Source: Minisyncoccota bacterium (GTDB taxonomy: Bacteria; Patescibacteriota; Minisyncoccia; Phycocordibacterales; DATDWN01). From it: a stretch of DNA of 64,000 nt. The DNA lies in NCBI GenBank assembly GCA_041658985.1, contig JBAZZC010000004.1:20221-84220 (forward strand), in the 5' to 3' direction. The notes beneath the pieces are model-generated. The model made no database searches and had not been told where the DNA came from. It saw only the letters and a list, made by a program, of their open reading frames with translations. A program made the position numbers and the translations under genes. Shown here piece after piece: positions 3,606-63,361 of the stretch. Numbering within the stretch: position 1 is the first letter of the stretch; each line of letters starts with the position of its first letter.

Positions 3606-4889
3606 ATGAGTACTTTTAAAATCGCAGTTACAACTATTTTTGCTATATCTTTTGTCGTTGGAATTATTCTTTTTGCTCTTTCCAAGGGTGGGTCATCTGG
3701 ACAAACAGCAAATCTTGTCATTTGGGGGACTATTCCAAGTGAAACTTTCGATGTGGCCTATCAGGGCTCATCTCTAAAGACAAATAAACTTATAAAAATA
3801 ACCTACATAAAGAAAGATAGTTCTACTTTTAACAATGATTTTATTGAGGCCCTAGCTGAAGGTGTCGGTCCAGACATTGTTTTATTGCGTGATGATTATA
3901 TATATAAAAATCGCAATAAATTATTTACTATACCCTATAAAAATTATACAGAGAGAAATTTTAGAGACACTTTCATTGAGGGCGGGGAAGTATTTTTAAA
4001 TGTTGATGGGGTGATTGCCTTGCCTTTTATGGTGGACCCCATGGTTATGTATTGGAACAGAGACTTGTTTTCAAATAATGCCGTTTCGAGTCCACCACAA
4101 TATTGGGACCAAATATATAGTCTGATAGAAAAAACCACTCGTCGTGATACGGACGCCAACATCCTTAAAAGTACTATAGCTTTAGGTGAATGGAGTAATA
4201 TAACAAATGCAAAGGAGATTATCACAATGCTTCTTCTTCAAGCCGGAACTCCCATAACCAGTCGCAACGGTCAAGAAGTTATTTCAGTTTTAAACTCAAA
4301 ATTTGATTACCCAGTTATTCCTAGTCAAAGTGCTATAAATTTTTATACTCAATTTTCCAATCCAACATCTCCATCTTATACGTGGAATCGCTCACTACCA
4401 TCATCATTTAATCTATTTCTTTCTGGTAATTTAGCAACTTATATTGGTTTTGCCAGTGAAATCTTTTCTATTCAACAAAAAAATTCAAACCTGAATTTTG
4501 ACGTAACATATGTTCCACAGATTCGTGATGCAACAAGGAAAACGGTTTTTGGACGAATGCATGCCCTAGCTATTGTCAAACAATCCAAACAAATTGCCGG
4601 TGCCTATCTAGCTGTGAATGGTTTGACAGAAGCGGTGGCCATAAAGGAGTTAGAGACTTTGACGAATTTACCTCCAGTTCGGAGAGATTTGTTGGCTGAT
4701 AAACCAACAGATACTTTTCGTACAGTCTTTTATAACTCTGCACTCATCTCTCGTCTATGGATTGACCCTGACTCTGTGGGTAGTGAAAAGGTTTTTCGTG
4801 ATATGATAGAATTAATAACAAGTGGACAAGGAAGAGTAAGTGATGCTTTGGACCAGGCAGATATTGGACTTGGGGAGCTACTCAAGTAA
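3606..4889 (+). CDS. extracellular solute-binding protein (ABC SBP family 1-like), N-terminal membrane anchor
   Basis: N-terminal TM helix. NLVIWGT and ALPFMVDPMVMYWNRDLF resemble the MalE-type SBP_bac_1 core. Confidence 0.55.
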   Translation: MSTFKIAVTTIFAISFVVGIILFALSKGGSSGQTANLVIWGTIPSETFDVAYQGSSLKTNKLIKITYIKKDSSTFNNDFIEALAEGVGPDIVLLRDDYIYKNRNKLFTIPYKNYTERNFRDTFIEGGEVFLNVDGVIALPFMVDPMVMYWNRDLFSNNAVSSPPQYWDQIYSLIEKTTRRDTDANILKSTIALGEWSNITNAKEIITMLLLQAGTPITSRNGQEVISVLNSKFDYPVIPSQSAINFYTQFSNPTSPSYTWNRSLPSSFNLFLSGNLATYIGFASEIFSIQQKNSNLNFDVTYVPQIRDATRKTVFGRMHALAIVKQSKQIAGAYLAVNGLTEAVAIKELETLTNLPPVRRDLLADKPTDTFRTVFYNSALISRLWIDPDSVGSEKVFRDMIELITSGQGRVSDALDQADIGLGELLK

Positions 4890-7334: not shown

Positions 7335-7823
7335 TTACCTCGAGAAGGTCACGATGACCGGTCTCGATGTTCCAGATTGGATTTCTATCCACGGTTGTTC
7401 GGGGATTTCAACCGTCATTCCTGGGCCGTCAACGTATGGTCGGCCGACTGGGTCCCAGATGAGAATGGGTCCTTGTGGCTTCCCCTTCATTCCGGCCAGG
7501 TAGGGGACTCGGCAACTCCGGCCCACAATGGGGGCTGTGACGACGTAGGTCCCATCTATCTCTGGAGTACAGAGGTTTACGATTGTAGCCGGTCCGGTCG
7601 ACCAGCTCCAGCACCCCCTAACCAGGAACACCGTCGTCAGGATGCCAACGCCGACGAGTACCCAATTGAGCCATCCACTTCTTCTGGTTGTCGTCGTGGC
7701 CGTGGTACTGGGTGGTAGTGGTCCAAACGGCCTTGGGCTATGGTGTTGTCGTGACTTGAAGACCTTGACAACAACCACGAGAACCAGAAGGACCGCCAGA
7801 ATCACAACAAGGGTGATAAGCAC
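7335..7823 (-). CDS. membrane protein downstream of the SPFH gene, NfeD-like partner candidate
   Basis: Two TM helices plus a C-terminal beta-rich domain. The operon position after an SPFH gene suggests NfeD-like (inference). GC-rich. Confidence 0.35.
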   Translation of the reverse strand: MLITLVVILAVLLVLVVVVKVFKSRQHHSPRPFGPLPPSTTATTTTRRSGWLNWVLVGVGILTTVFLVRGCWSWSTGPATIVNLCTPEIDGTYVVTAPIVGRSCRVPYLAGMKGKPQGPILIWDPVGRPYVDGPGMTVEIPEQPWIEIQSGTSRPVIVTFSR

Positions 7824-7825
7824 GT

Positions 7826-8893
7826 TTACCCACCCTTCTTCCCGTCAGTGGGCAGAGGGAGCGTGACTGGCACCTGCCCACCACCCGTGACGTCTACTCG
7901 TGTAGTCAGTCCGGGCTGTGCTCGTGCCGCCAGGATGCGCGAGACTTGCTCTGCGGCGATGTTCGGGTTGACCCCCTGCTGCACCAACTCCGCAACCATT
8001 CGTGAGAACTGGGCGGCGTCTGCTTCCGCAAGTCGTATCCCAGCCTCTTGTCTGGCTGTGCTTGAGATGGTTAGGGCAGTGGCTTCGGCCGTTGCTTGAG
8101 CGATCTGTCCAGCACCCTCTAGCTGAGCCATCTTCTTGGCCTCGATGGCTTGACGGGTCTTCTCGTCAGCCGGGTCCCACCGTGAGATGGAGATTCCAGT
8201 GATTCTGGTTCCGACCTGCCTGACGAGTTCCTTGTTGAGTGGGCTGTCGGGGTCTTTCAACCCGTCCAGAATCCCTTGGACTTCTCCCTTGTCGATGTTG
8301 ATGAAGTCGTCGATGGTCAAGTCGTTAATGATGTCACCAACTGCTCCCTGAACGATTCCTCCTGCGTTTCCAAAGAAGTCTCCCTTCAGGCGAATAATCG
8401 GTGTTCCCGGCGTTACGACCACAGACTTGGTTCTGACTAGGACGTTGACCGACATGCCGTCCTTGAGCTCCACCTTCCACATGAGGTACGAACGGGGGAA
8501 GGTCTTTCGAAGGGTGTCCGTCCACTCCACGCCGAGATCGATGATCCACTTTTCGGCGGGAGCTTGATCATCCGGGTTTTCTTTTTCCCTGTGAATCGGA
8601 AACTTCAAGACAGACGAGATGCCAGGGATTCCTACCCACCACAAGCCGAGATGCTTGTTGAGGAAGGATTTCTCTTGGTTTCCGTCGACGAACAACCCAG
8701 AGTCGGTTTCTCCGTTGTCGTCGAGGTGTTCTCCACGCGCGTCGTGGATGATTTGTGCGAGGGACTCTCCCACCATCCTGAACTTAATGTTGTCCGTCTG
8801 GATACGGGTTAGCATACCCAGTTGGACGAGGAGAATGATCCCGACCACGGCAATTGCTAGGGTCAGGATCACAGACAGCAAAAAAGTAACCAC
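7826..8893 (-). CDS. SPFH/band-7 (stomatin/prohibitin/flotillin-like) domain membrane protein
   Basis: N-terminal TM, then an SPFH-like core (IINDLTIDDFINIDKGEVQG...) and an Ala/Gln-rich coiled-coil tail. Markedly GC-rich relative to its surroundings. Confidence 0.7.
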   Translation of the reverse strand: MVTFLLSVILTLAIAVVGIILLVQLGMLTRIQTDNIKFRMVGESLAQIIHDARGEHLDDNGETDSGLFVDGNQEKSFLNKHLGLWWVGIPGISSVLKFPIHREKENPDDQAPAEKWIIDLGVEWTDTLRKTFPRSYLMWKVELKDGMSVNVLVRTKSVVVTPGTPIIRLKGDFFGNAGGIVQGAVGDIINDLTIDDFINIDKGEVQGILDGLKDPDSPLNKELVRQVGTRITGISISRWDPADEKTRQAIEAKKMAQLEGAGQIAQATAEATALTISSTARQEAGIRLAEADAAQFSRMVAELVQQGVNPNIAAEQVSRILAARAQPGLTTRVDVTGGGQVPVTLPLPTDGKKGG

Positions 8894-11743: not shown

Positions 11744-11751
11744 TGTGGTTT

Positions 11752-35175: not shown

Positions 35176-35442
35176 GTGTTATTGTTAGAAGATTACACAA
35201 CCCTACTCAGATGGACCCTCTTGGTTAAGGGTGTTATCTGGATGGTCGTTTTCACGGCCATCATCATGGTTTGCGTCGGCTGGAGGCCGTGGCACAGGTG
35301 TGTTCACTGCCAGAGTCGGCTCGTCTTTTGGCGGGACAAGATGACCACCATCATGACGTGTAGTGTTATTGAATACCACCAAAGAGGTTGGTGGAGGTGT
35401 CTTTGGTGCTGGAAACGAGAAATCAACTTCCGGCCCCAATGA
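35176..35442 (+). CDS. GC-rich small Cys/Trp-rich hypothetical protein. It is uncertain which strand is coding; the minus-strand ORF 35203..35445 is Pro-rich.
   Basis: ~360-bp GC-rich block between rel and topA. The plus-strand ORF is followed by an 11-bp-stem hairpin plus T-run at 35451-35517. Confidence 0.25.
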   Translation: MLLLEDYTTLLRWTLLVKGVIWMVVFTAIIMVCVGWRPWHRCVHCQSRLVFWRDKMTTIMTCSVIEYHQRGWWRCLWCWKREINFRPQ

Positions 35443-35515
35443 CACTCCCAGGCCTCAACAGAAAAGAACTTCGCGCTTCGTGCACGGGGTCCTCATACTG
35501 TTGAGGCCTTTTCTG

Positions 35516-38042: not shown

Positions 38043-38324
38043 TCAGTGAATTGTGTCTGGTGGGGACGGAATCTCGGCGTCGTCGATGATGATTGCCGAA
38101 CACGTCCAACTGTTGGGGTTCACATCACTTTCCAGGATGTAGAACTCCTTACCTTTGAACGTTAACGGCAGAGCCTTGAGAACCCTGTGGTCATAGCCAC
38201 ATTCCTCAGGTTCCCTCGTCTCGACAACCGTTCCCGCAGACAGACTGAGCTCCGTGTGGTGTAGGAGCTGGGTTCCTTCTCGTCTCTTGAGAACCCGAAG
38301 TCTCTTGTTGACCCTGATTTTCAT
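38043..38324 (-). CDS. hypothetical GC-rich small protein (93 aa)
   Basis: SD AGGAGGT 6 nt before the ATG. Own terminator. GC content clearly above the flanks. Confidence 0.45.
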   Translation of the reverse strand: MKIRVNKRLRVLKRREGTQLLHHTELSLSAGTVVETREPEECGYDHRVLKALPLTFKGKEFYILESDVNPNSWTCSAIIIDDAEIPSPPDTIH

Positions 38325-39235: not shown

Positions 39236-39354
39236 TATTTTAGTATATCAATATGTATGTAATTTGTAATGGATTGTGATTGACAATTTATGCAACAAGT
39301 ATAATCTAAAAAAAGATTTATGTTTTTTGGCCACCTGTAACTCGGAGGTTTCTA

Positions 39355-39698
39355 TGAAAATGGTTCTTGTGTGCGTGCTCGCTCTTTGCTTTGTTGCTTG
39401 TGAACATCACAGTGTGACGACATTCAATGCTGTGATTTCCGACCTCCGGGTAACGGGGTCGTTGGCCTTAGGAGAAACGGTGGAAACTGTAAGTGCATGC
39501 GGGTTTTCTGCCAAGGGTGAGGGTCGCACACTCATCTTCAGAACTACCAACTACGCGTTGGAGTGTTCTCTTTTGAAGAATGGGGACATGATACAAATCA
39601 CGAAGGTGGTAACAACTTCGCCTGGGGGTGAAGGTGTTCGTTACCACTGGTATGTGGGGGAGAAGCACGACAGTCTCTATCCGGAGACGGTTCGTTGA
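39355..39698 (+). CDS. GC-rich small lipoprotein (lipobox LCFVAC)
   Basis: SD GGAGG 7 nt before ATG at 39355. Signal peptide MKMVLVCVLALCFVAC. Terminator at 39724-39768. Confidence 0.45.
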
Positions 39699-39789
39699 CT
39701 TTCTCGGCGTGTGTTTGGGTTTTCGGCCATGGATTAGCAGTCCGTGGCCGTTTCTTTTCATATTATATTGATTTTGATACTATATATAC

Positions 39790-42042: not shown

Positions 42043-42495
42043 AATTTCTAATTACTAATTTCTAATTACTAAATAAATCCCAATGATCAAAAACCAAAAG
42101 TTTGATTTGGAAGAACGAAGTGCAAAATTTGGGGAGGATGTAATTAAATTTTGTAGAGACTTGCCGAAAGATGAAATAACAAGACCAATAATTAATCAAC
42201 TGGTAAAATGTAGTACGAGTGTTGGGGCTAATTATTGTGAAGCAGATGATGCTGAATCTAAGAAGGATTTTAAACACAAGATTGGTATTTGTAAGAAAGA
42301 AGCAAGAGAATCAAAACATTTTTTGAGAATGTCTGTAATTGCAGTACCCGAAGTTAAGGAAAGAGCAAAAATTTTGTGGGTTGAGGCAAAAGAGCTAAAT
42401 TTGATATTTAATGCTATATATAATAAGTGTTGACTTGGTAATTGGTGCTTGGTTATTGTTTAGAAATTAGGTCAATTAGTAATTAGAAATTTTTA
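42043..42495. mobile_element. family B TIR element carrying a four-helix-bundle (23S rRNA IVS protein family) gene
   Basis: Left arm GAATTTCTAATTACTAATTTCTAATTACTAAATAA. Right arm TAGAAATTAGGTCAATTAGTAATTAGAAATTTTTA (approximate reverse complement). Encloses ORF 42083..42433. Confidence 0.5.
42083..42433 (+). CDS. four-helix-bundle protein (TIGR02436 / 23S rRNA intervening-sequence protein family)
   Basis: KCSTSVGANYCEADDAESKKDFKHKIGICKKEARESKHFLRM matches the rSatSIpANIAEG...kdf...l.iA.GS..E family pattern. Confidence 0.7.
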   Translation: MIKNQKFDLEERSAKFGEDVIKFCRDLPKDEITRPIINQLVKCSTSVGANYCEADDAESKKDFKHKIGICKKEARESKHFLRMSVIAVPEVKERAKILWVEAKELNLIFNAIYNKC

Positions 42496-42515: not shown

Positions 42516-43541
42516 ATGACTTTTTGGAATAAGTTAAAAAAACCATTTTTTGTTCTTGCACCCATGGCAGATGTAACTGACCCAGCCTTTCGGCGTATTA
42601 TTGCCAAGTATGGAAAACCAGATGTTTTGTGGACGGAGTTTGTTTCGGCTGATGGTTTGTTTATGGGGGGATATGATGCATTAGTCAAAGATCTGGCTTT
42701 TAGTGAAGAAGAGAGACCAATCGTGGCACAATTTTTTACTTCAAAACCAGAAATAATGGAGAGGGCGGCCAAACTTGCAGTGGAGCTTGGGTTTGATGGT
42801 ATTGATATAAATATGGGCTGTCCCGACAAGAGTATAGAAAAGCAAAGTGCTGGGGCAAAACTTATGACCAACCCAAAGCTAGCTCAAGAAATTATTTTGT
42901 CTGCCATGAAGGGGGCGGGGGATTTGCCTGTTAGTGTAAAGACACGAATTGGTTGGAATAAAAATGAACTTGAGACTTGGTTGCCTGCTCTTTTAGAAAC
43001 AAATCCTGCTGCTATTACTGTCCACGCACGGACCCGCAAGGAACTGTCTCTTGTGCCGGCAAGATGGGAACATGTGAAGCGAGCTGTTGAGATTAGAGAT
43101 AATTTTATTAATTCACAGGGAGAAAAAAGTAAGACTTTAATTATTGGAAATGGTGATGTAAAAGATTTAGATGATGCAAAAGCTAAAGCCGAGGAGACTG
43201 GTTGTGATGGAGTTATGCTTGGACGTGCTATTTTTGGTAATCCATGGTTATTTGCCAATTTGTCCCATGCGAAGCATGGTAGACAAATTGAGCATCCCGC
43301 CGAAGCCTTGGCGAAGGTGGATATTTCCATTGAAGATAAATTAAAAGTGCTGGTAGAACATACAAAATTATTTGAAAAATTACTTCCGCAAAAAAGTTTT
43401 GCGGTTATGAAAAAACATTACAAAGCGTATGTGACAGGATGGCATACAGCAAAAGAATTACGAATGAAATTGATGGAAGCAGGAAATACAAACGAAGTTG
43501 AGCAGGTTGTGGATAACTATTTAGAAAATAGCTTAAAATAA
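42516..43541 (+). CDS. tRNA-dihydrouridine synthase
   Basis: FVLAPMADVTDPAFRRIIAKYG (Dus lAPMaGvTD..FR), TIM-barrel FMN-binding motifs, catalytic Cys region NMGCP. Confidence 0.9.
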   Translation: MTFWNKLKKPFFVLAPMADVTDPAFRRIIAKYGKPDVLWTEFVSADGLFMGGYDALVKDLAFSEEERPIVAQFFTSKPEIMERAAKLAVELGFDGIDINMGCPDKSIEKQSAGAKLMTNPKLAQEIILSAMKGAGDLPVSVKTRIGWNKNELETWLPALLETNPAAITVHARTRKELSLVPARWEHVKRAVEIRDNFINSQGEKSKTLIIGNGDVKDLDDAKAKAEETGCDGVMLGRAIFGNPWLFANLSHAKHGRQIEHPAEALAKVDISIEDKLKVLVEHTKLFEKLLPQKSFAVMKKHYKAYVTGWHTAKELRMKLMEAGNTNEVEQVVDNYLENSLK

Positions 43542-43580
43542 GGATATTTTCATATTAAAAAATAAGGCATATTTTATTGC

Positions 43581-43972
43581 TTGACTTATCCTATGGTTAT
43601 GCTATACTTAGCCTCGGAACCCTGGGGCGTCGAGTCGGAGAGTTGAGGTTGGCCAAAGGGCCGAGTTTCTCCGCGCGAATGAACGCGCCGGGCTTCCATG
43701 TGGTATACTTAATTCATCGATGGCCGGGCCGCTGCGACGACAATGCAACGACCTGGCAAAGCGGACCAACTCTGGCGGTTGCCAGAAAGGAGGAGTGCCT
43801 ACGCACCCGAGAAGAATGCATTGATACACCCCGCCAAGGGAAGTCCAGTGCAGGTCCTCGGGCTAGAACACACCAAGCTCTTTTATGGCCCGCGGTGGCC
43901 TAGAGCCACCGCGGGTTACCATAACGCCCTTGGACGTAAGACGCAGATTTGCGCAGTCGTAGGGCGTTTTTT
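43581..43972 (+). ncRNA. GC-rich putative structured RNA 1 (~360 nt), identity unknown
   Basis: TTGACT-16-TATACT promoter at 43581-43608. Strongly GC-rich body with no SD or coherent ORF. 3' stem ACGCCCT...AGGGCGT + TTTTTT at 43925-43972. Confidence 0.45.
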
Positions 43973-44010
43973 CATATCTAAAAAGAAAAAGTGAAAACTT
44001 TTTAAAATGC

Positions 44011-44270
44011 TTGACATATTTTGGTAGTATGATAACTTACTTATTAGACGACGAAGCTCGAGAGGGGTTGAAGTGGTATAACCCATAGACCCATCTCTGG
44101 CCTTTGCGAGGGGCTCACGCCATGACGACGCCGGACTAAAAAGGCGCACCACGGCGGGTGGACCATCCAAACAAATGAATCTCGGTTTATTCCGAGCTTC
44201 AGCACACTGAGTTGGATGGCCACCCCCCAAGCCAAGCACCGAGGTCCACCTGCGGACCGAGGTGTTTTTT
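44011..44270 (+). ncRNA. GC-rich putative structured RNA 2 (~225 nt), identity unknown, immediately upstream of dnaX
   Basis: TTGACA -35 box at 44011. GC-rich body. Terminal hairpin GGTCC-acctgc-GGACC region + TTTTTT at 44240-44270. Confidence 0.4.
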
Positions 44271-44312
44271 CGTATACAAAAAGAAAACGAAATAAGTTAT
44301 ACTGTTATAACT

Positions 44313-45383
44313 ATGAGCGAGACACTATATAGAAAATACCGTCCCCACAAATTCTCCGACGTAATCGGGCAAGACCATATCGTTAAAGTTCTAGAAGCAG
44401 AGGTGAAATCTGGCGACATTTCTCACGCCTATCTTTTTGCAGGAACTCGCGGGACGGGGAAAACTTCTGTGGCAAGAATTTTTGCATCTGGCATTGGCAC
44501 ATCCGCAAATGATATTTATGAAATTGATGCCGCATCAAATACAAGTGTAGATGATGTTCGGGCATTGAACGAATCAGTTTTTACTCTACCTTTTGAATCA
44601 AAATATAAAGTTTACATTTTGGACGAAGTCCACATGCTCTCCAAGTCTGCTTCAAACGCCCTGCTCAAGACTTTGGAAGAACCACCGGCACATGTTGTTT
44701 TTATTCTTGCCACAACAGAGACACACAAGATACCACAGACTGTTTTGTCTCGCTGTGAAGTCTACACATTTAAAAAACCAAGTCAGGAGGTCTTGAAAAA
44801 AATGTCTCAAACTGTGGCAAAGAAGGAAGGATTTGTGCTAGACGACTCATCGGCAGAACTAGTTGCAATTTTGGGTGACGGCTCCTTCCGTGATACACAA
44901 GGGATTGTCCAAAAAGTGCTTGCGTATTCAAAAGACCCCAGTACTAGAGCAGAGCTCAGTACGGGGCACAGCAAGAAAATTTCTGAAGACGAGGTTCGTC
45001 TCGTTACGGGTGCGCCATCGGTGGAGCTTGTTCATGGTGTTGTTTCAGCCATGGCTGAAAAGGATTTGACCAAAGGTCTGGAAAATGTAAAAAAGGCAGT
45101 TGAACAAAATATAGACATGTCTGTCTTTCTGAAATTAATCTTGCACACAGTCAGAGCGGTCTTGCTTGTTAGATTCGGGGCAGGGCATTTGGTCAAAGAC
45201 GAACTATCAGAAAAAGAATTTGCTTTTGTAAGTGATTTTGCTCTAAATCCCGAAGTTGGTGAAGTCTTCTCATCCCAGACACTCATTGAACTTCTGACTG
45301 CCTACGAGAAAACAACTGGGGCGTATATACCGCAGTTACCACTTGAATTGGCTCTAGTAAAGCTTATTGGTGAAAACAAATAA
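44313..45383 (+). CDS. dnaX: DNA polymerase III subunit gamma/tau (short form)
   Basis: YRKYRPHKFSDVIGQDHIVKVLEAEV, Walker A AGTRGTGKTS, SRC sensor motif SRCEVYTF. Start taken at the Met of MSETLYRKY; the ORF track starts at 44262 inside the RNA-2 terminator. Confidence 0.85.
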   Translation: MSETLYRKYRPHKFSDVIGQDHIVKVLEAEVKSGDISHAYLFAGTRGTGKTSVARIFASGIGTSANDIYEIDAASNTSVDDVRALNESVFTLPFESKYKVYILDEVHMLSKSASNALLKTLEEPPAHVVFILATTETHKIPQTVLSRCEVYTFKKPSQEVLKKMSQTVAKKEGFVLDDSSAELVAILGDGSFRDTQGIVQKVLAYSKDPSTRAELSTGHSKKISEDEVRLVTGAPSVELVHGVVSAMAEKDLTKGLENVKKAVEQNIDMSVFLKLILHTVRAVLLVRFGAGHLVKDELSEKEFAFVSDFALNPEVGEVFSSQTLIELLTAYEKTTGAYIPQLPLELALVKLIGENK

Positions 45384-45389
45384 AACAAA

Positions 45390-45827
45390 ATGTTCTTTGT
45401 TAAAGATTTTACAAGAAATTCTTGGGTGGTAAAAGTCTGGAAAGAAGGGAGGCATTTTGATTTATGGCACGTTAACCATTTTCTGGCCGGTATTTTATTG
45501 GGTTGTTTGGTTATATTTTTAAAATTAGAATTCTGGATAGGTTTTGTTGCGTCAGTTGTTTTGATGTTGGCCTGGGAGGTGTTTGAGCTTGTCACAGAAA
45601 TAGAGGAAACGAGGTTTAATATGGTCTTTGATGTTGTTTTCAGTGTTTTTTCTTATTTCTTGACTCTTTTCTTGGCAAAAAATTATTTATCATCATTAAG
45701 TCTTCTCGTCTTGTTTTACGTGTCACTCATTATGTTTGCTATTCTTGAACTCTGGGGTTATTGGGCTTATAAAAATAGAGGTTTAAATAGAATAAAAAAT
45801 AAAAGAGAAACTGTTAGTAGGGAATAA
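45390..45827 (+). CDS. hypothetical 4-TM membrane protein
   Basis: Hydrophobic segments only. Confidence 0.35.
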   Translation: MFFVKDFTRNSWVVKVWKEGRHFDLWHVNHFLAGILLGCLVIFLKLEFWIGFVASVVLMLAWEVFELVTEIEETRFNMVFDVVFSVFSYFLTLFLAKNYLSSLSLLVLFYVSLIMFAILELWGYWAYKNRGLNRIKNKRETVSRE

Positions 45828-45884
45828 CCAAAGTTGTCCACATCATGTCGAACATAGGTTATGATATAATTATCTATATAATCT

Positions 45885-46574
45885 ATGTTCTCAAACAATA
45901 TTAAAAAAGAAAAGGCCGTTACTCTCCGAAAAGAAGGTAAGTCGTACTCGGAGATTTTAAAAGAAGTCTCTGTCGCAAAGTCTACACTTTCAGAATGGTT
46001 ACATAGTGTAGGTTTATCTAAAAAGCAATTTCAAAGATTAACTGCCAAGAAATTGGAAGCGTCCAAACGTGGTGGTTTGGTAAAACATCAACAGAGACTA
46101 CAAAGAGTACAAAAAATACATGAGGTGGCGTTAAAAGATATAACAAATATTTCAAAACGCGAGTTATGGCTTATTGGAATAGCGTTGTACTGGGCAGAAG
46201 GAACAAAAGAAAAGGATTCACACCCGGGACCAGGTATTAGTTTCAACAATTCTGACCCCAGAATGATTAAAGTATTTATTAAATGGTTAGTAGAATCATG
46301 TCGAGTTAATAAAGACAGAATTGGTTGTGAGATATATATTCATGAAAATAGTAAAAACGGTGTTGATGAAGTAAGAAAATACTGGTCTAAAATAACAGGT
46401 TTTCATGTAAAAAAATTTAACAAAGTCTATTTTAAAACAAATAAGTTAAAAACTAACAGAAAAAATATTGGGAGCTTGTATTATGGGCTATTACGGGTTA
46501 AAGTAAGTGCTAGTTCTAGTTTACTTCGGCAAATAGCTGGGTGGACAGAAGCAATAGTTAGAGGTATTAAATGA
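45885..46574 (+). CDS. HTH + degenerate LAGLIDADG-like endonuclease-domain protein (putative), ending 6 nt before tRNA-Gln
   Basis: N-terminal HTH (GKSYSEILKEVSVAKSTLSEWL). WLIGIALYWAEGTK resembles a single LAGLIDADG motif. Low confidence. Confidence 0.3.
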   Translation: MFSNNIKKEKAVTLRKEGKSYSEILKEVSVAKSTLSEWLHSVGLSKKQFQRLTAKKLEASKRGGLVKHQQRLQRVQKIHEVALKDITNISKRELWLIGIALYWAEGTKEKDSHPGPGISFNNSDPRMIKVFIKWLVESCRVNKDRIGCEIYIHENSKNGVDEVRKYWSKITGFHVKKFNKVYFKTNKLKTNRKNIGSLYYGLLRVKVSASSSLLRQIAGWTEAIVRGIK

Positions 46575-46580
46575 AATATT

Positions 46581-56056: not shown

Positions 56057-56509
56057 ATGCGTATCGCCACAGTGTTCGTCGCTCTCGCCCTGCTCGTCGG
56101 TTTGGTTGGGTTTGTTAGTGCTCAGCCACCGACGACGATGGTCGTCGGATACGAGGCCGAGCTGGTCAACCTGACCTCACTCGGCCTTATCTGGCCTGGC
56201 GTTGATGAGCCTTGTGGGCCATACTTTCGGTTCAATGGTGTTCCGAAGGGAGCTGGTAAGATTGGAACGTTGGTTCTCGTCGCATCGTCCATCGGCAAGG
56301 ACGGTATGAGGGAGGCCCTGGTTCCCATGTTGGGGACGGACAAGTTCCAGCTCCGGATGACTACGGGGCTTAAGGTCCCGAGGATCAAGATTCTCCGGCG
56401 TGGAGGCCCGGTGCTTCCATGGATTGAAATTTCCATCAGTCCGGCAGACTATAGACAGGCGCCGTGCCTGTCCCACGTGGCGGTCTTGGGCAGTGTCCCT
56501 GCCCACTGA
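56057..56509 (+). CDS. GC-rich secreted hypothetical protein
   Basis: SD GAAGGAG 8 nt upstream. Signal peptide MRIATVFVALALLVGLVGFVSA. GC-rich hairpin/T-rich region after the stop. Confidence 0.45.
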   Translation: MRIATVFVALALLVGLVGFVSAQPPTTMVVGYEAELVNLTSLGLIWPGVDEPCGPYFRFNGVPKGAGKIGTLVLVASSIGKDGMREALVPMLGTDKFQLRMTTGLKVPRIKILRRGGPVLPWIEISISPADYRQAPCLSHVAVLGSVPAH

Positions 56510-60964: not shown

Positions 60965-61026
60965 TTTATATTGTTGACAAAAAGGCTGTAGCTGATAATC
61001 TAATTTTGGAGCGGGAAGGAGTTTAC

Positions 61027-61275
61027 ATGCCAAAAACAAGTATGAAGGACGACAAGCCTTTCCACGAGTCCATTGTGGATGCGATTGGAGAAGCATCAAG
61101 CACTGACCTTCACTGTCTCGGTCGTCTGATCAAGGCGACAGCCATCCCAAAGGGTCATGACCAGATTCTTACAGCGTGGGAGGGACATGCCAGGCCAATC
61201 CTGGGTTCTATGGACCTCGGGGTCCCGGAAGCGCTTCGTCTTAAGAAGCGACGAGCCGAACGTGGCGACGGCTAA
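61027..61275 (+). CDS. GC-rich small hypothetical protein (~82 aa)
   Basis: SD GGAAGGAG before ATG at 61027. Terminator hairpin at 61288-61325. Confidence 0.4.
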   Translation: MPKTSMKDDKPFHESIVDAIGEASSTDLHCLGRLIKATAIPKGHDQILTAWEGHARPILGSMDLGVPEALRLKKRRAERGDG

Positions 61276-61351
61276 AGGCCTGTGGGAAAGCCCGCGATAT
61301 CATCGCGCTCCCACGGGCTTTTTCACACTCAAAAACTTTATGTTATAATTC

Positions 61352-61653
61352 ATCCGCACACTAACTCTCATTTCGTTATGTTTTATGTATATGTGATCAA
61401 AAGTAAAAAGTTTGATAATCTATACATTGGTTCTACTAATAGTCTTAGAGAAAGACTCATAAAACATAACAAAGGACTAGTTAAATCAACAAAAAAGAAT
61501 AAACCATATGTGCTAATATATTATGAAGCGTATAAGATAGAATCAGATGCGCGAAGGAGGGAAAAAATGTTAAAATATAGAGGTCAAGCAAGAAATCAAT
61601 TAAAATTAAGAATAAAAGACACACTAGCGCAAAATGAGAGTTAGTGTGCGGAT
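61352..61653. mobile_element. family A TIR element (22-bp TIR ATCCGCACACTAACTCTCATTT) carrying a GIY-YIG nuclease gene
   Basis: Left TIR 61352-61373. Right TIR 61632-61653 is an exact reverse complement. The GIY-YIG stop codon lies inside the right TIR. Confidence 0.65.
61378..61644 (+). CDS. GIY-YIG nuclease family protein (URI domain, ~88 aa)
   Basis: MFYVYVIKSKKFDNLYIGSTNSLRERLIKHN gives the GIY...YIG motifs, plus a conserved Arg and Glu downstream. Confidence 0.8.
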   Translation: MFYVYVIKSKKFDNLYIGSTNSLRERLIKHNKGLVKSTKKNKPYVLIYYEAYKIESDARRREKMLKYRGQARNQLKLRIKDTLAQNES

Positions 61654-61655
61654 AA

Positions 61656-62695: not shown

Positions 62696-62716
62696 AGGAG
62701 GGCCCTAAGGCCCCCC
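62696..62716 (-). terminator. rho-independent terminator (minus strand)
   Basis: Minus strand reads GGGGGCCTTAGGGCCC then TCCTGTCTTTTTA. Confidence 0.5.
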
Positions 62717-62734
62717 GTGAAGAAGTTGCGTGGG

Positions 62735-62839
62735 TCAGAACCTGACCCGTCCGTCCCACGTAAGTGGGCGGTTGTGCCGAACGACAGCGGCGACGGTAAT
62801 TCCGAGAATGATAGCACCGAAGAACCAGAATCGCTTCAC
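62735..62839 (-). CDS. tiny hydrophobic peptide (34 aa), GC-rich. Not in the ORF track.
   Basis: SD GAGAGGAGAAG before a GTG start. Single TM-like peptide VKRFWFFGAIILGITVAAVV... Confidence 0.25.
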   Translation of the reverse strand: MKRFWFFGAIILGITVAAVVRHNRPLTWDGRVRF

Positions 62840-63154
62840 GGCTTCTCCTCTCTCTGGTCAACCCGCACGGCTGACACAGTCTATTGTTAGTAAAACACAC
62901 ACAAGATAAATCTGTCAAAAAAAATGGGGATTAATCCGAACACCAAATTTGGCATCGTTGCATCGTGTTTTAATATGTGTAAGTTGTGTTGCTATGTGAT
63001 AGGACATGAGGTTATATAAAAATGTTTAACAAGCAACAAAAACACAATGCCAAAATTGGTGTGCGGATAAACGACGAACCGGCGGACTTGCGTCTGCCGG
63101 TGTGAAGGGGATTAACTCCCTTCATGTTTCTAGCTCGACATGTGCCGAGCCGTA

Positions 63155-63361
63155 CTAAGGGAACTTGAAGTCTGACTCGTCCGCCCACTTTCGGGTGGTG
63201 GGTGGAGTCTCGACCGCCGGCGGGTGTTCCTTCTGATATCTGGTCGCCTCGTTGATGAAGTGGCGAACAGCCACAATCCATCCGAGTGCGACCAGAATCA
63301 TAAACACGAAACCGATGACTTGGTTCCACGGAATCTCGTGAACAAATCTAATTGCGAGCAT
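63155..63361 (-). CDS. GC-rich small membrane protein (~68 aa)
   Basis: SD GAGGAAGG 7 nt before the ATG at 63361 (MLAIRFVHEIPW...). One TM helix. The ORF-track entry extends further upstream. Confidence 0.4.
   Translation of the reverse strand: MLAIRFVHEIPWNQVIGFVFMILVALGWIVAVRHFINEATRYQKEHPPAVETPPTTRKWADESDFKFP

Follow-up and report, generated by a model that had tools for sequence, protein, structure and literature searches.

The DNA analysed here, referred to as the window, is a 64,000-nucleotide (nt) stretch of contig JBAZZC010000004.1 of a Minisyncoccota bacterium, and the subject of this report is a block between its genes dus and dnaX in which two structured RNAs are predicted. The window belongs to a genome of 38% guanine plus cytosine (GC), its own GC being 0.383. 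The GC of the block is 0.58-0.60 at 43600-43900 and 0.535 at 44100-44300, compared with 0.31-0.43 in the flanks, and the GC-rich islands are delimited exactly by a predicted promoter and terminator. On the upstream side lies dus (tRNA-dihydrouridine synthase, 42516-43541, plus strand), a 341-amino-acid (aa) open reading frame (ORF) with a match to Pfam PF01207, which is syntenic with dnaX in about 100 relatives. On the downstream side lies dnaX (356 aa, 44313-45383, plus strand), the start of which was placed at the ATG at 44313 rather than at the GTG at 44262. The local gene order is serS, an FtsQ-like gene, a gene of the 23S_rRNA_IVP family, dus, the block, dnaX, two small ORFs and tRNA-Gln. 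An ENA contig of 86 kb and two Logan contigs carry the identical sequence.

Predicted transcription units between dus and dnaX

Unit 1 begins with a plus-strand promoter, TTGACT-16 nt-TGcTATACT (43581-43608), which has a 10/12 match and a TG extension and was the best promoter-like site found by a consensus scan of 43000-45000. The predicted RNA (43615-43972, plus strand) is about 358 nt long with 59% GC, its start being inferred from the -10 box and its end being the T-run. The intrinsic terminator (43924-43972, plus strand), recognised from sequence and fold, has a 7-bp closing stem, formed by ACGCCCT (43924-43930) and AGGGCGT (43961-43967), with a hairpin inside it and T6 (43967-43972) after it. 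Shortly before it, the minimum free energy (MFE) fold contains a perfect 11-bp GC-rich hairpin, CCCGCGGTGGC-CTAGA-GCCACCGCGGG (43889-43915, plus strand), and a comparable long pre-terminator hairpin is found in the units of relatives.

Unit 2 follows on the same strand. Its promoter (44011-44038), TTGACA (44011-44016)-16 nt-TGaTAACTT (44030-44038), was not listed by the consensus scan because the -10 box has only a 3/6 match; its layout and spacer sequence resemble those of the unit promoters of relatives (L006 and L015; L-numbers, L001-L163, are labels of related dnaX loci fetched for comparison). The RNA predicted from the fold, promoter and terminator (44045-44270, plus strand) is about 226 nt long with 57% GC, and ends in an intrinsic terminator (44237-44270, plus strand) made up of a hairpin at 44237-44264 and T6 at 44265-44270. 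The apical loops in its predicted fold are UUUAUU and GGACUAAAAA.

Both predicted folds are multi-branched. The MFE was -156.7 kcal/mol for unit 1 (z = -3.8 relative to dinucleotide shuffles) and -96.4 kcal/mol for unit 2 (z = -5.6), and in neither case was any shuffle equally stable. A preliminary description of this DNA had proposed two GC-rich units between dus and dnaX, each with a sigma70-like promoter and an intrinsic terminator, and on this point sequence, GC content and folding agree. The same description had found neither a Shine-Dalgarno (SD) sequence nor a coherent ORF in the block. The ORF part of that statement stands, as no ORF in the block has a Pfam match and the three codon positions of unit 1 scarcely differ in GC (0.58/0.60/0.60, against 0.62/0.47/0.68 in the true GC-rich genes of the window and 0.52/0.36/0.31 in core genes). 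The SD part does not, as unit 1 contains a perfect SD-like element, AGAAAGGAGG (43784-43793, plus strand), situated between two hairpins.

ORFs exist in the block because GC-rich sequence has few stop codons. Public assemblies call one of them, on unit 1, as a 108-aa 'hypothetical protein' (window 43577-43903, plus strand; L001 4062-4388). This ORF begins at a TTG inside the -35 box of the promoter, and no relative besides itself was found among 5.8 billion proteins; it is therefore considered a gene-calling artefact.

Downstream of unit 2, a -10 box, TATACT, is located 9 nt before the dnaX ATG (44298-44315, plus strand), with no SD sequence. A TAnnnT box 6-9 nt 5' of the dnaX ATG was found in 59 of 106 relatives, including those with spacers of 0-17 nt. 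Because the box is so close to the ATG and there is no SD sequence, dnaX is predicted to have its own promoter and a leaderless or near-leaderless mRNA, and for this reason the two units are not regarded as its leader.

The spacer and its core element in related bacteria

For comparison, 160 loci around dnaX were fetched, 80 from genomes and 80 from metagenomes. The best DnaX relatives (50-87% identity) come from metagenome-assembled genomes named Candidatus Zambryskibacteria, Paceibacterota or Parcubacteria, and the window's genome is taken to be one of Candidatus Zambryskibacteria. In nearly all of the 160 loci dus is upstream of dnaX on the same strand, and the arrangement dus-spacer-dnaX is conserved over about 100 Paceibacteria, with spacers of 0 to 2211 nt. 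Among close relatives (DnaX identity at least 63%, n = 41) the spacer is at least 200 nt long in 40 of the 41 (median 535 nt). Of those 40, 27 have an island reaching 55% GC or more, and in 22 TTGAC(A/T) occurs within the first 140 nt. More distant relatives have a spacer shorter than 60 nt in 16 of 65 cases, and overall it measures 0-60 nt in 17 relatives.

The loci L004, L005, L021, L066 and others have the same organisation as the window, ie promoter, GC-rich body and terminator, in one or two units. When the clades were compared all-against-all by BLASTN, alignment was in essence confined to the promoter region and to the final 40-60 nt (terminator tail and dnaX promoter), and the bodies did not align; at the 5' end of the spacer the promoter region is the sole part that still aligns between relatives. 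The closest relative, L084 (86% DnaX identity), has a single unit of 150 nt, similar only to the 3' domain of unit 1 in L004. A C-run in unit 2, CCACCCCC (44220), recurs in the second units or 3' halves of L004, L005 and L034, and a short string, GACGAAGCUC, is common to unit 2 and L005. These matches suggest that unit 2 may share descent with the second units or 3' halves of those three loci. Within L004, two near-identical 60-nt terminator segments (3611-3670 and 3926-3985, 92% identity) follow unrelated bodies, which suggests that the terminator module may have been duplicated or gene-converted.

Where the units of relatives can be aligned, the alignments favour structured RNAs. In the alignable family A (L025, L100, L101 and L102) RNAalifold predicts 89 pairs; 92% of cells are paired, compared with 40-48% when the partners are slid, and there are 15 double-sided pair changes compared with 1-5, the structure tested having itself been obtained from these four sequences. 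Homologs compared two at a time have most of their substitutions at unpaired positions, and their indels, of 1, 2, 4 nt and similar, are not multiples of three. Between L006 and L007 the 256 paired columns contain 10 substitutions and the unpaired remainder 34. L011 and L094 differ by a compensatory change in the long pre-terminator hairpin. The 5' segment of the relatives' RNAs pairs to close the first domain, and their units contain hairpins capped by UUCG, GCAA and GUAA as well as the long perfect hairpin before the terminator. The covariation analysis proposed in the preliminary description was thus favourable for the syntenic units of relatives; the window's own units have no alignable homolog. 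A weak nhmmer match of family A in L080 was discarded as spurious, its position being within a gene for a protein.

Besides promoter and terminator words, the only enriched 8-mer in the spacers was GAAAGGAG, found in 22 of 86 compared with 1.9 expected, usually at a depth of about 190-290 nt. It corresponds to the SD consensus of the clade, because real ORFs in distant relatives use GAAAGGAGGUGA. In many RNAs of the unit 1 type, GAAAGGAG(G) is followed after 2-24 nt by (A/U)(U/G)(G/C)CCACCG. On the plus strand of the spacer this composite core reaches 0.30/kb, about 9-fold its frequency in the rest of the loci (0.035/kb); the minus strand of the spacer has 0.10/kb. As judged from its sequence, window unit 1 carries what reads as a divergent copy, in which AGAAAGGAGG is followed by CACCCG (43804-43809), the counterpart of the relatives' CCACCG element. 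A possible 9-codon mini-ORF, GTG CCT ACG CAC CCG AGA AGA ATG CAT TGA (43795-43824, plus strand), can be read across it.

Mini-ORFs of the form SD-start-Pro-Pro-stop numbered 6, whereas shuffled sequences gave 0.34 +/- 0.59 and the reverse strand 1. They are ATG CCA CCG TAG in L004 unit 1, ATG CCG CCG TAG in L023, ATG CCA CCG GGT TGA in L086, TTG CCT CCG AAC TGA in L004 unit 2, GTG GAC AGT CCA CCG GGT TAG in L066 and ATG GAC AGT CCC CCG AAG TAA in L019. Of 30 candidate ORFs, 8 have proline as their second codon, compared with about 7% in controls. The same strings also take part in hairpins, eg GGAGG...CCUCC in L004 unit 2 and GGUGGC-CAU-GCCACC in L086. The core may thus be a sequestered SD hairpin, CCNCC being the anti-SD arm, or a tiny Met-(x)-Pro-Pro-stop ORF, and either fits the sequences. 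An SD mimic exposed as a single strand was rejected, since its predicted accessibility is no higher than average.

Known RNA families and other explanations

In Bacillus the signal recognition particle (SRP) RNA gene, ffs, is directly upstream of dnaX. On that ground the preliminary description had named unit 2 as a candidate for SRP RNA (ffs/scRNA), and from its size it had considered unit 1 as RNase P RNA or transfer-messenger RNA (tmRNA). A search of the whole window with Rfam 15 at gathering scores gave nine tRNAs only, with no SRP, RNase P, tmRNA or 6S RNA, and no match to these four was obtained at E<=10 with lax filters in 43500-44350 (851 nt). With the same tool E. coli rnpB, used as a positive control, scored 318.6 bits. 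The Rfam and ARAGORN scans of relatives covered the fetched loci around dnaX. The syntenic units of 27 relatives had no SRP, RNase P, tmRNA or 6S match: unit-sized stretches of L066 (396 nt) and family A (506 nt) were negative at E<=10 for RF00010, SRP and any other family, and the 25 further loci contained tRNAs only. ARAGORN found no tmRNA in the window or in the loci of 50 relatives.

The CPR (Candidate Phyla Radiation) bacteria are known for diverged RNase P RNAs, and the core bears some resemblance by eye to RNase P strands, so RNase P was tested specifically. Strands CR-I (GAGGAAAGUCCGG) and CR-V (ACAGAAnCCGGCUUA) of P4 were absent from the units within three mismatches, the string AGGAAAGTCC had no occurrence in the 160 related loci, and a hidden Markov model (HMM) of the core element gave no match to the E. 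coli rnpB locus even at E<=100. An AGUCCGG string in family A pairs locally with compensatory changes and is therefore not a P4 strand. RNase P was accordingly set aside as unlikely, as the likeness to CR-II, CR-III and the P7/P5 strands was by eye and three targeted Rfam scans, the P4 mapping and the core HMM were all negative. The SRP domain IV string GGAAGGAAGCAGC was likewise absent from the units within three mismatches, and neither a GNRA-capped domain IV nor an AGCA loop was seen in unit 2; look-alikes of domain IV noticed by eye in unit 2 and L084 were rejected for want of a GNRA cap. The tmRNA, including its permuted form, was rejected on the negative ARAGORN result and because no T-arm was seen in the sequences, and 6S RNA on the lack of an RF00013 match at E<=10 and the multi-branched predicted folds.

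Of the identities put forward in the preliminary description, none was borne out: unit 2 has no RF00169 or RF01854 match, no GGAAGGAAGCAGC and no domain IV, unit 1 has no RF00010 match and no P4 strands, and tmRNA is negative by ARAGORN and Rfam. Its search of Rfam for SRP, RNase P, tmRNA and 6S, proposed as a check, is now answered by the absence of a match at either the gathering score or E<=10. Its own failure to find the SRP and RNase P P4 motifs was reproduced, those strings being absent within three mismatches, and its fallback, novel non-coding RNAs (ncRNAs), is the reading that survives the Rfam and ARAGORN negatives.

Like unit 1, class A RNase P RNA (RF00010) is about 360 nt long, GC-rich, multi-hairpin and independently transcribed (for the units transcription is predicted), and two short strings of the unit 1 family resemble by eye J12/13 and the 3' strands of P7/P5. 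The units differ from it in having no covariance-model match, no P4, tandem core-bearing copies, and truncation or absence at the site in close relatives. The SRP RNA of Bacillus and other Gram-positives is also directly 5' of dnaX, with its own promoter and terminator and a length of about 230-270 nt, but the unit lacks domain IV (GNRA cap and AGCA symmetric loop), and in many Paceibacteria dus and dnaX abut with no spacer. With 6S RNA and other fast-evolving stable RNAs the units share the look of a stable, abundant RNA gene of low sequence conservation with a paired 5' end; unlike 6S they have no rod with a central bubble, no RF00013 match and no link to RNA polymerase.

From the scans of the window and the fetched loci, an RNase P identity for unit 1 and an SRP identity for unit 2 are therefore unlikely. 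It is very improbable that Rfam has missed an RNase P RNA of extreme divergence in unit 1 and a divergent SRP RNA, in a Bacillus-like ffs-dnaX arrangement, in unit 2, even though the unit sizes fit, the position recalls Bacillus, and the core GAAAGGAGUGAAAC...UCCACCGGG/GAAGCA resembles GuAAGGGUGAAAa and CCCCacccGgaGCAA of RF00010 by eye and in the right order. Divergence of this kind is on record, as in 10 of 35 closed CPR genomes RNase P RNA was detected only when thresholds were lowered (PMC8172020), but all CPR RNase P RNAs were still detected by RF00010 at lowered scores (PMC8172020), and here there was no match at E<=10 even on the unit alone (window, L066 and family A). L004 moreover has two core-bearing units in tandem, and a spacer that is shorter than 60 nt in 17 relatives and holds a 150-nt unit only in the closest one is unlike the site of an indispensable RNA. 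A cis-acting leader or attenuator of dnaX, in which a proline-rich leader ORF would control read-through of the terminator, is hardly tenable. The units are directly 5' of dnaX on the same strand, the order of SD, mini-ORF, hairpins and terminator recalls leader-peptide attenuators, and published work treats leader peptides, polyproline stalling and EF-P together. As in proline-codon leader ORFs, a strong SD and a very short Pro-Pro ORF stand in a structured RNA before an intrinsic terminator. However, dnaX has its own leaderless promoter, the -10 box of which is conserved even without any spacer; a read-through transcript would bury the leaderless start codon; two full terminators and a second promoter stand between the window mini-ORF and dnaX; and in several lineages the ORF is missing or has no start codon, while the CCNCC of the units may be a mere arm of an anti-SD hairpin.

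A small but appreciable probability attaches to the units being micro-peptide mRNAs, or decayed remnants of them, from the window's pool of GC-rich, independently transcribed small accessory genes. Several small genes of the window (53-57% GC) share the layout of promoter, AAGGAG SD and terminator, the conserved motif is the clade's SD consensus, Pro-Pro mini-ORFs after it are commoner than chance, and real ORFs of 45-110 aa are present in the same spacer of more distant relatives. Against this, the SD-like string is about 170 nt into a folded leader, compared with leaders of 35-60 nt in the true small genes, GC is flat by codon position, the ORFs after the motif have just 2-9 codons, are absent or have no start codon, and between homologous units there are compensatory pair changes as well as indels of 1, 2 and 4 nt. 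It is improbable that the two conserved genes here enclose GC-rich filler without function, or leftovers of foreign or mobile DNA. Sequence turnover between species is complete, the spacer varies from 0 to 2211 nt, nothing similar was found in related loci, protein space, phages or plasmids, and the nearby interval between dnaX and tRNA-Gln is variable too. The GC-rich part nevertheless runs from the predicted transcription start to the terminator, with both signals kept across the clade; folding is far better than that of shuffles; the units of relatives have stable UUCG- and GNRA-capped hairpins and, wherever homologs are alignable, compensatory changes; and neither repeats of the units in the window nor a phage or plasmid match was found.

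Nature of the RNAs and neighbouring genes

The reading that we favour, with moderate confidence, is that the block contains two separate plus-strand genes for stable, highly structured ncRNAs, belonging to a lineage-specific, fast-evolving locus of Zambryskibacteria and to no described family. Each unit has the general marks of an independently transcribed (as predicted) structured ncRNA gene: a promoter and terminator of its own, a fold more stable than chance would give, and no coding signal. Each would be transcribed from its own sigma-70-type promoter to its own intrinsic terminator, giving RNAs of about 358 nt (unit 1) and 226 nt (unit 2). The features held constant across the clade would be the promoter, an initial hairpin domain that the transcript closes with its 5' end, the long perfect hairpin and the terminator. 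RNAs of the unit 1 type would have in addition the central purine-rich GAAAGGAG(G) with CCACCG 2-24 nt further on, the remaining sequence turning over, and unit 2 would be a second, shorter RNA of the same locus. As stable RNAs they would probably act in trans. The conserved look-alike of a ribosome-binding site would be either held in a GGAGG/CCNCC hairpin or translated as Met-(x)-Pro-Pro-stop with pausing of the ribosome, and in both cases the RNA could interact with the 30S subunit or the translating ribosome. The conserved internal element points only weakly to such an interaction, which we propose from the sequence of the motif.

Several results weigh against this interpretation. A search of the 160 related loci with nhmmer gave no homolog of either window unit, and thermodynamics is consequently the sole basis of their structures. 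The minus strands fold about equally well (z = -4.6 and -3.5), so the strand was assigned from the promoters and terminators. The sole 150-nt unit of the closest relative has no core element, which implies that the role of the RNAs is dispensable or replaceable. As to the core itself, its mean unpaired probability in predicted accessibility is 0.39 compared with 0.36 overall, and family A, the best-aligned family, keeps AGU CCA CCG AAG CAC UAA without a start codon before Pro-Pro. In unit 1 the GTG is only 1 nt after GGAGG, which makes translation there doubtful, and the two prolines of the window mini-ORF are not adjacent.

A more specific proposal, which is speculative and unlikely, is that these RNAs form a new class of stable RNA found in Zambryskibacteria alone. 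Such an RNA would load the ribosome on a strong SD and hold it on an ORF of 3-6 codons, Met-(x)-Pro-Pro-stop, acting as a sensor or sink of ribosomes that depends on EF-P or proline supply, and the rest of the molecule would be a nuclease-resistant, freely drifting scaffold. The locus has some likeness to tandem paralogous small RNAs, in that two adjacent genes on the same strand have their own promoters and terminators and occur in one or two copies per genome. Compared with typical base-pairing small RNAs, the units are longer (226-480 nt) and more structured, and no conserved seed or target was identified.

The CPR bacteria have tiny genomes and, to our knowledge, almost nothing is known of their ncRNAs. 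The locus is a clear case of a maintained transcription unit (promoter, terminator and GC-rich folded body) in which the sequence of the body is replaced between species, and a GC-rich island in an AT-rich CPR genome is not automatically a missing housekeeping RNA. The small set of RNAs with one conserved element provides concrete candidates for ribosome binding or stalling. For annotation, a false lead is removed, as the units are probably not rnpB, ffs or ssrA, and the 108-aa 'hypothetical protein' is flagged as spurious.

GC-rich protein genes of the same layout are present elsewhere in the window, so GC-richness alone is no proof of an RNA gene here. Small genes of 53-57% GC are at 7335-8893(-), 35230-35480(+), 38043-38324(-), 39300-39700(+), 56057-56509(+), 61022-61300(+) and 62700-63330(-). 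Each comes with a TTGAC(A/T) promoter, an AAGGAG ribosome-binding site and a terminator of its own, and the GC-rich part begins downstream of the AT-rich promoter. GC at third codon positions is 0.61-0.68 in these genes and 0.31-0.38 in core genes. Several have N-termini resembling signal peptides, lipoboxes or membrane segments, and a Pfam search of four gave a weak SPFH match in one and none in three. Selection on the transcript and foreign origin fit these genes equally well.

Just 5' of dus is a 116-aa protein of the 23S_rRNA_IVP family (PF05635; window 42083-42433, plus strand), a family which we take to include the Avd accessory proteins of diversity-generating retroelements. A link of the units to such elements through this neighbour was considered and rejected: neither unit is repeated within the window and no template/variable repeat pair involves them. 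No reverse transcriptase was seen among those neighbouring genes that were scanned, and nothing similar to the units was found in phage and plasmid records. On the other side of dnaX, the interval up to tRNA-Gln(TTG) (window 45384-46580) ranges from about 50 nt to 3.5 kb among relatives and is probably a second variable hotspot. In the window it contains one membrane-like ORF of 145 aa and another, of 229 aa, that weakly matches a resolvase-type helix-turn-helix.

A 12-mer, TTATCCGCACAC, is present in 9 copies in the window with one mismatch allowed, compared with 0.13 expected, at 11750/11875, 13641/13768, 59501/59725, 61350/61644 and 63059. It also occurs at L011 3987-3998, immediately 5' of dnaX, and at L092 2487-2498. 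Eight of the 9 copies make four inverted pairs with a spacing of 125-300 nt, one of which (61350-61655) encloses a small ORF, and the pairs look like a family of miniature inverted-repeat elements.

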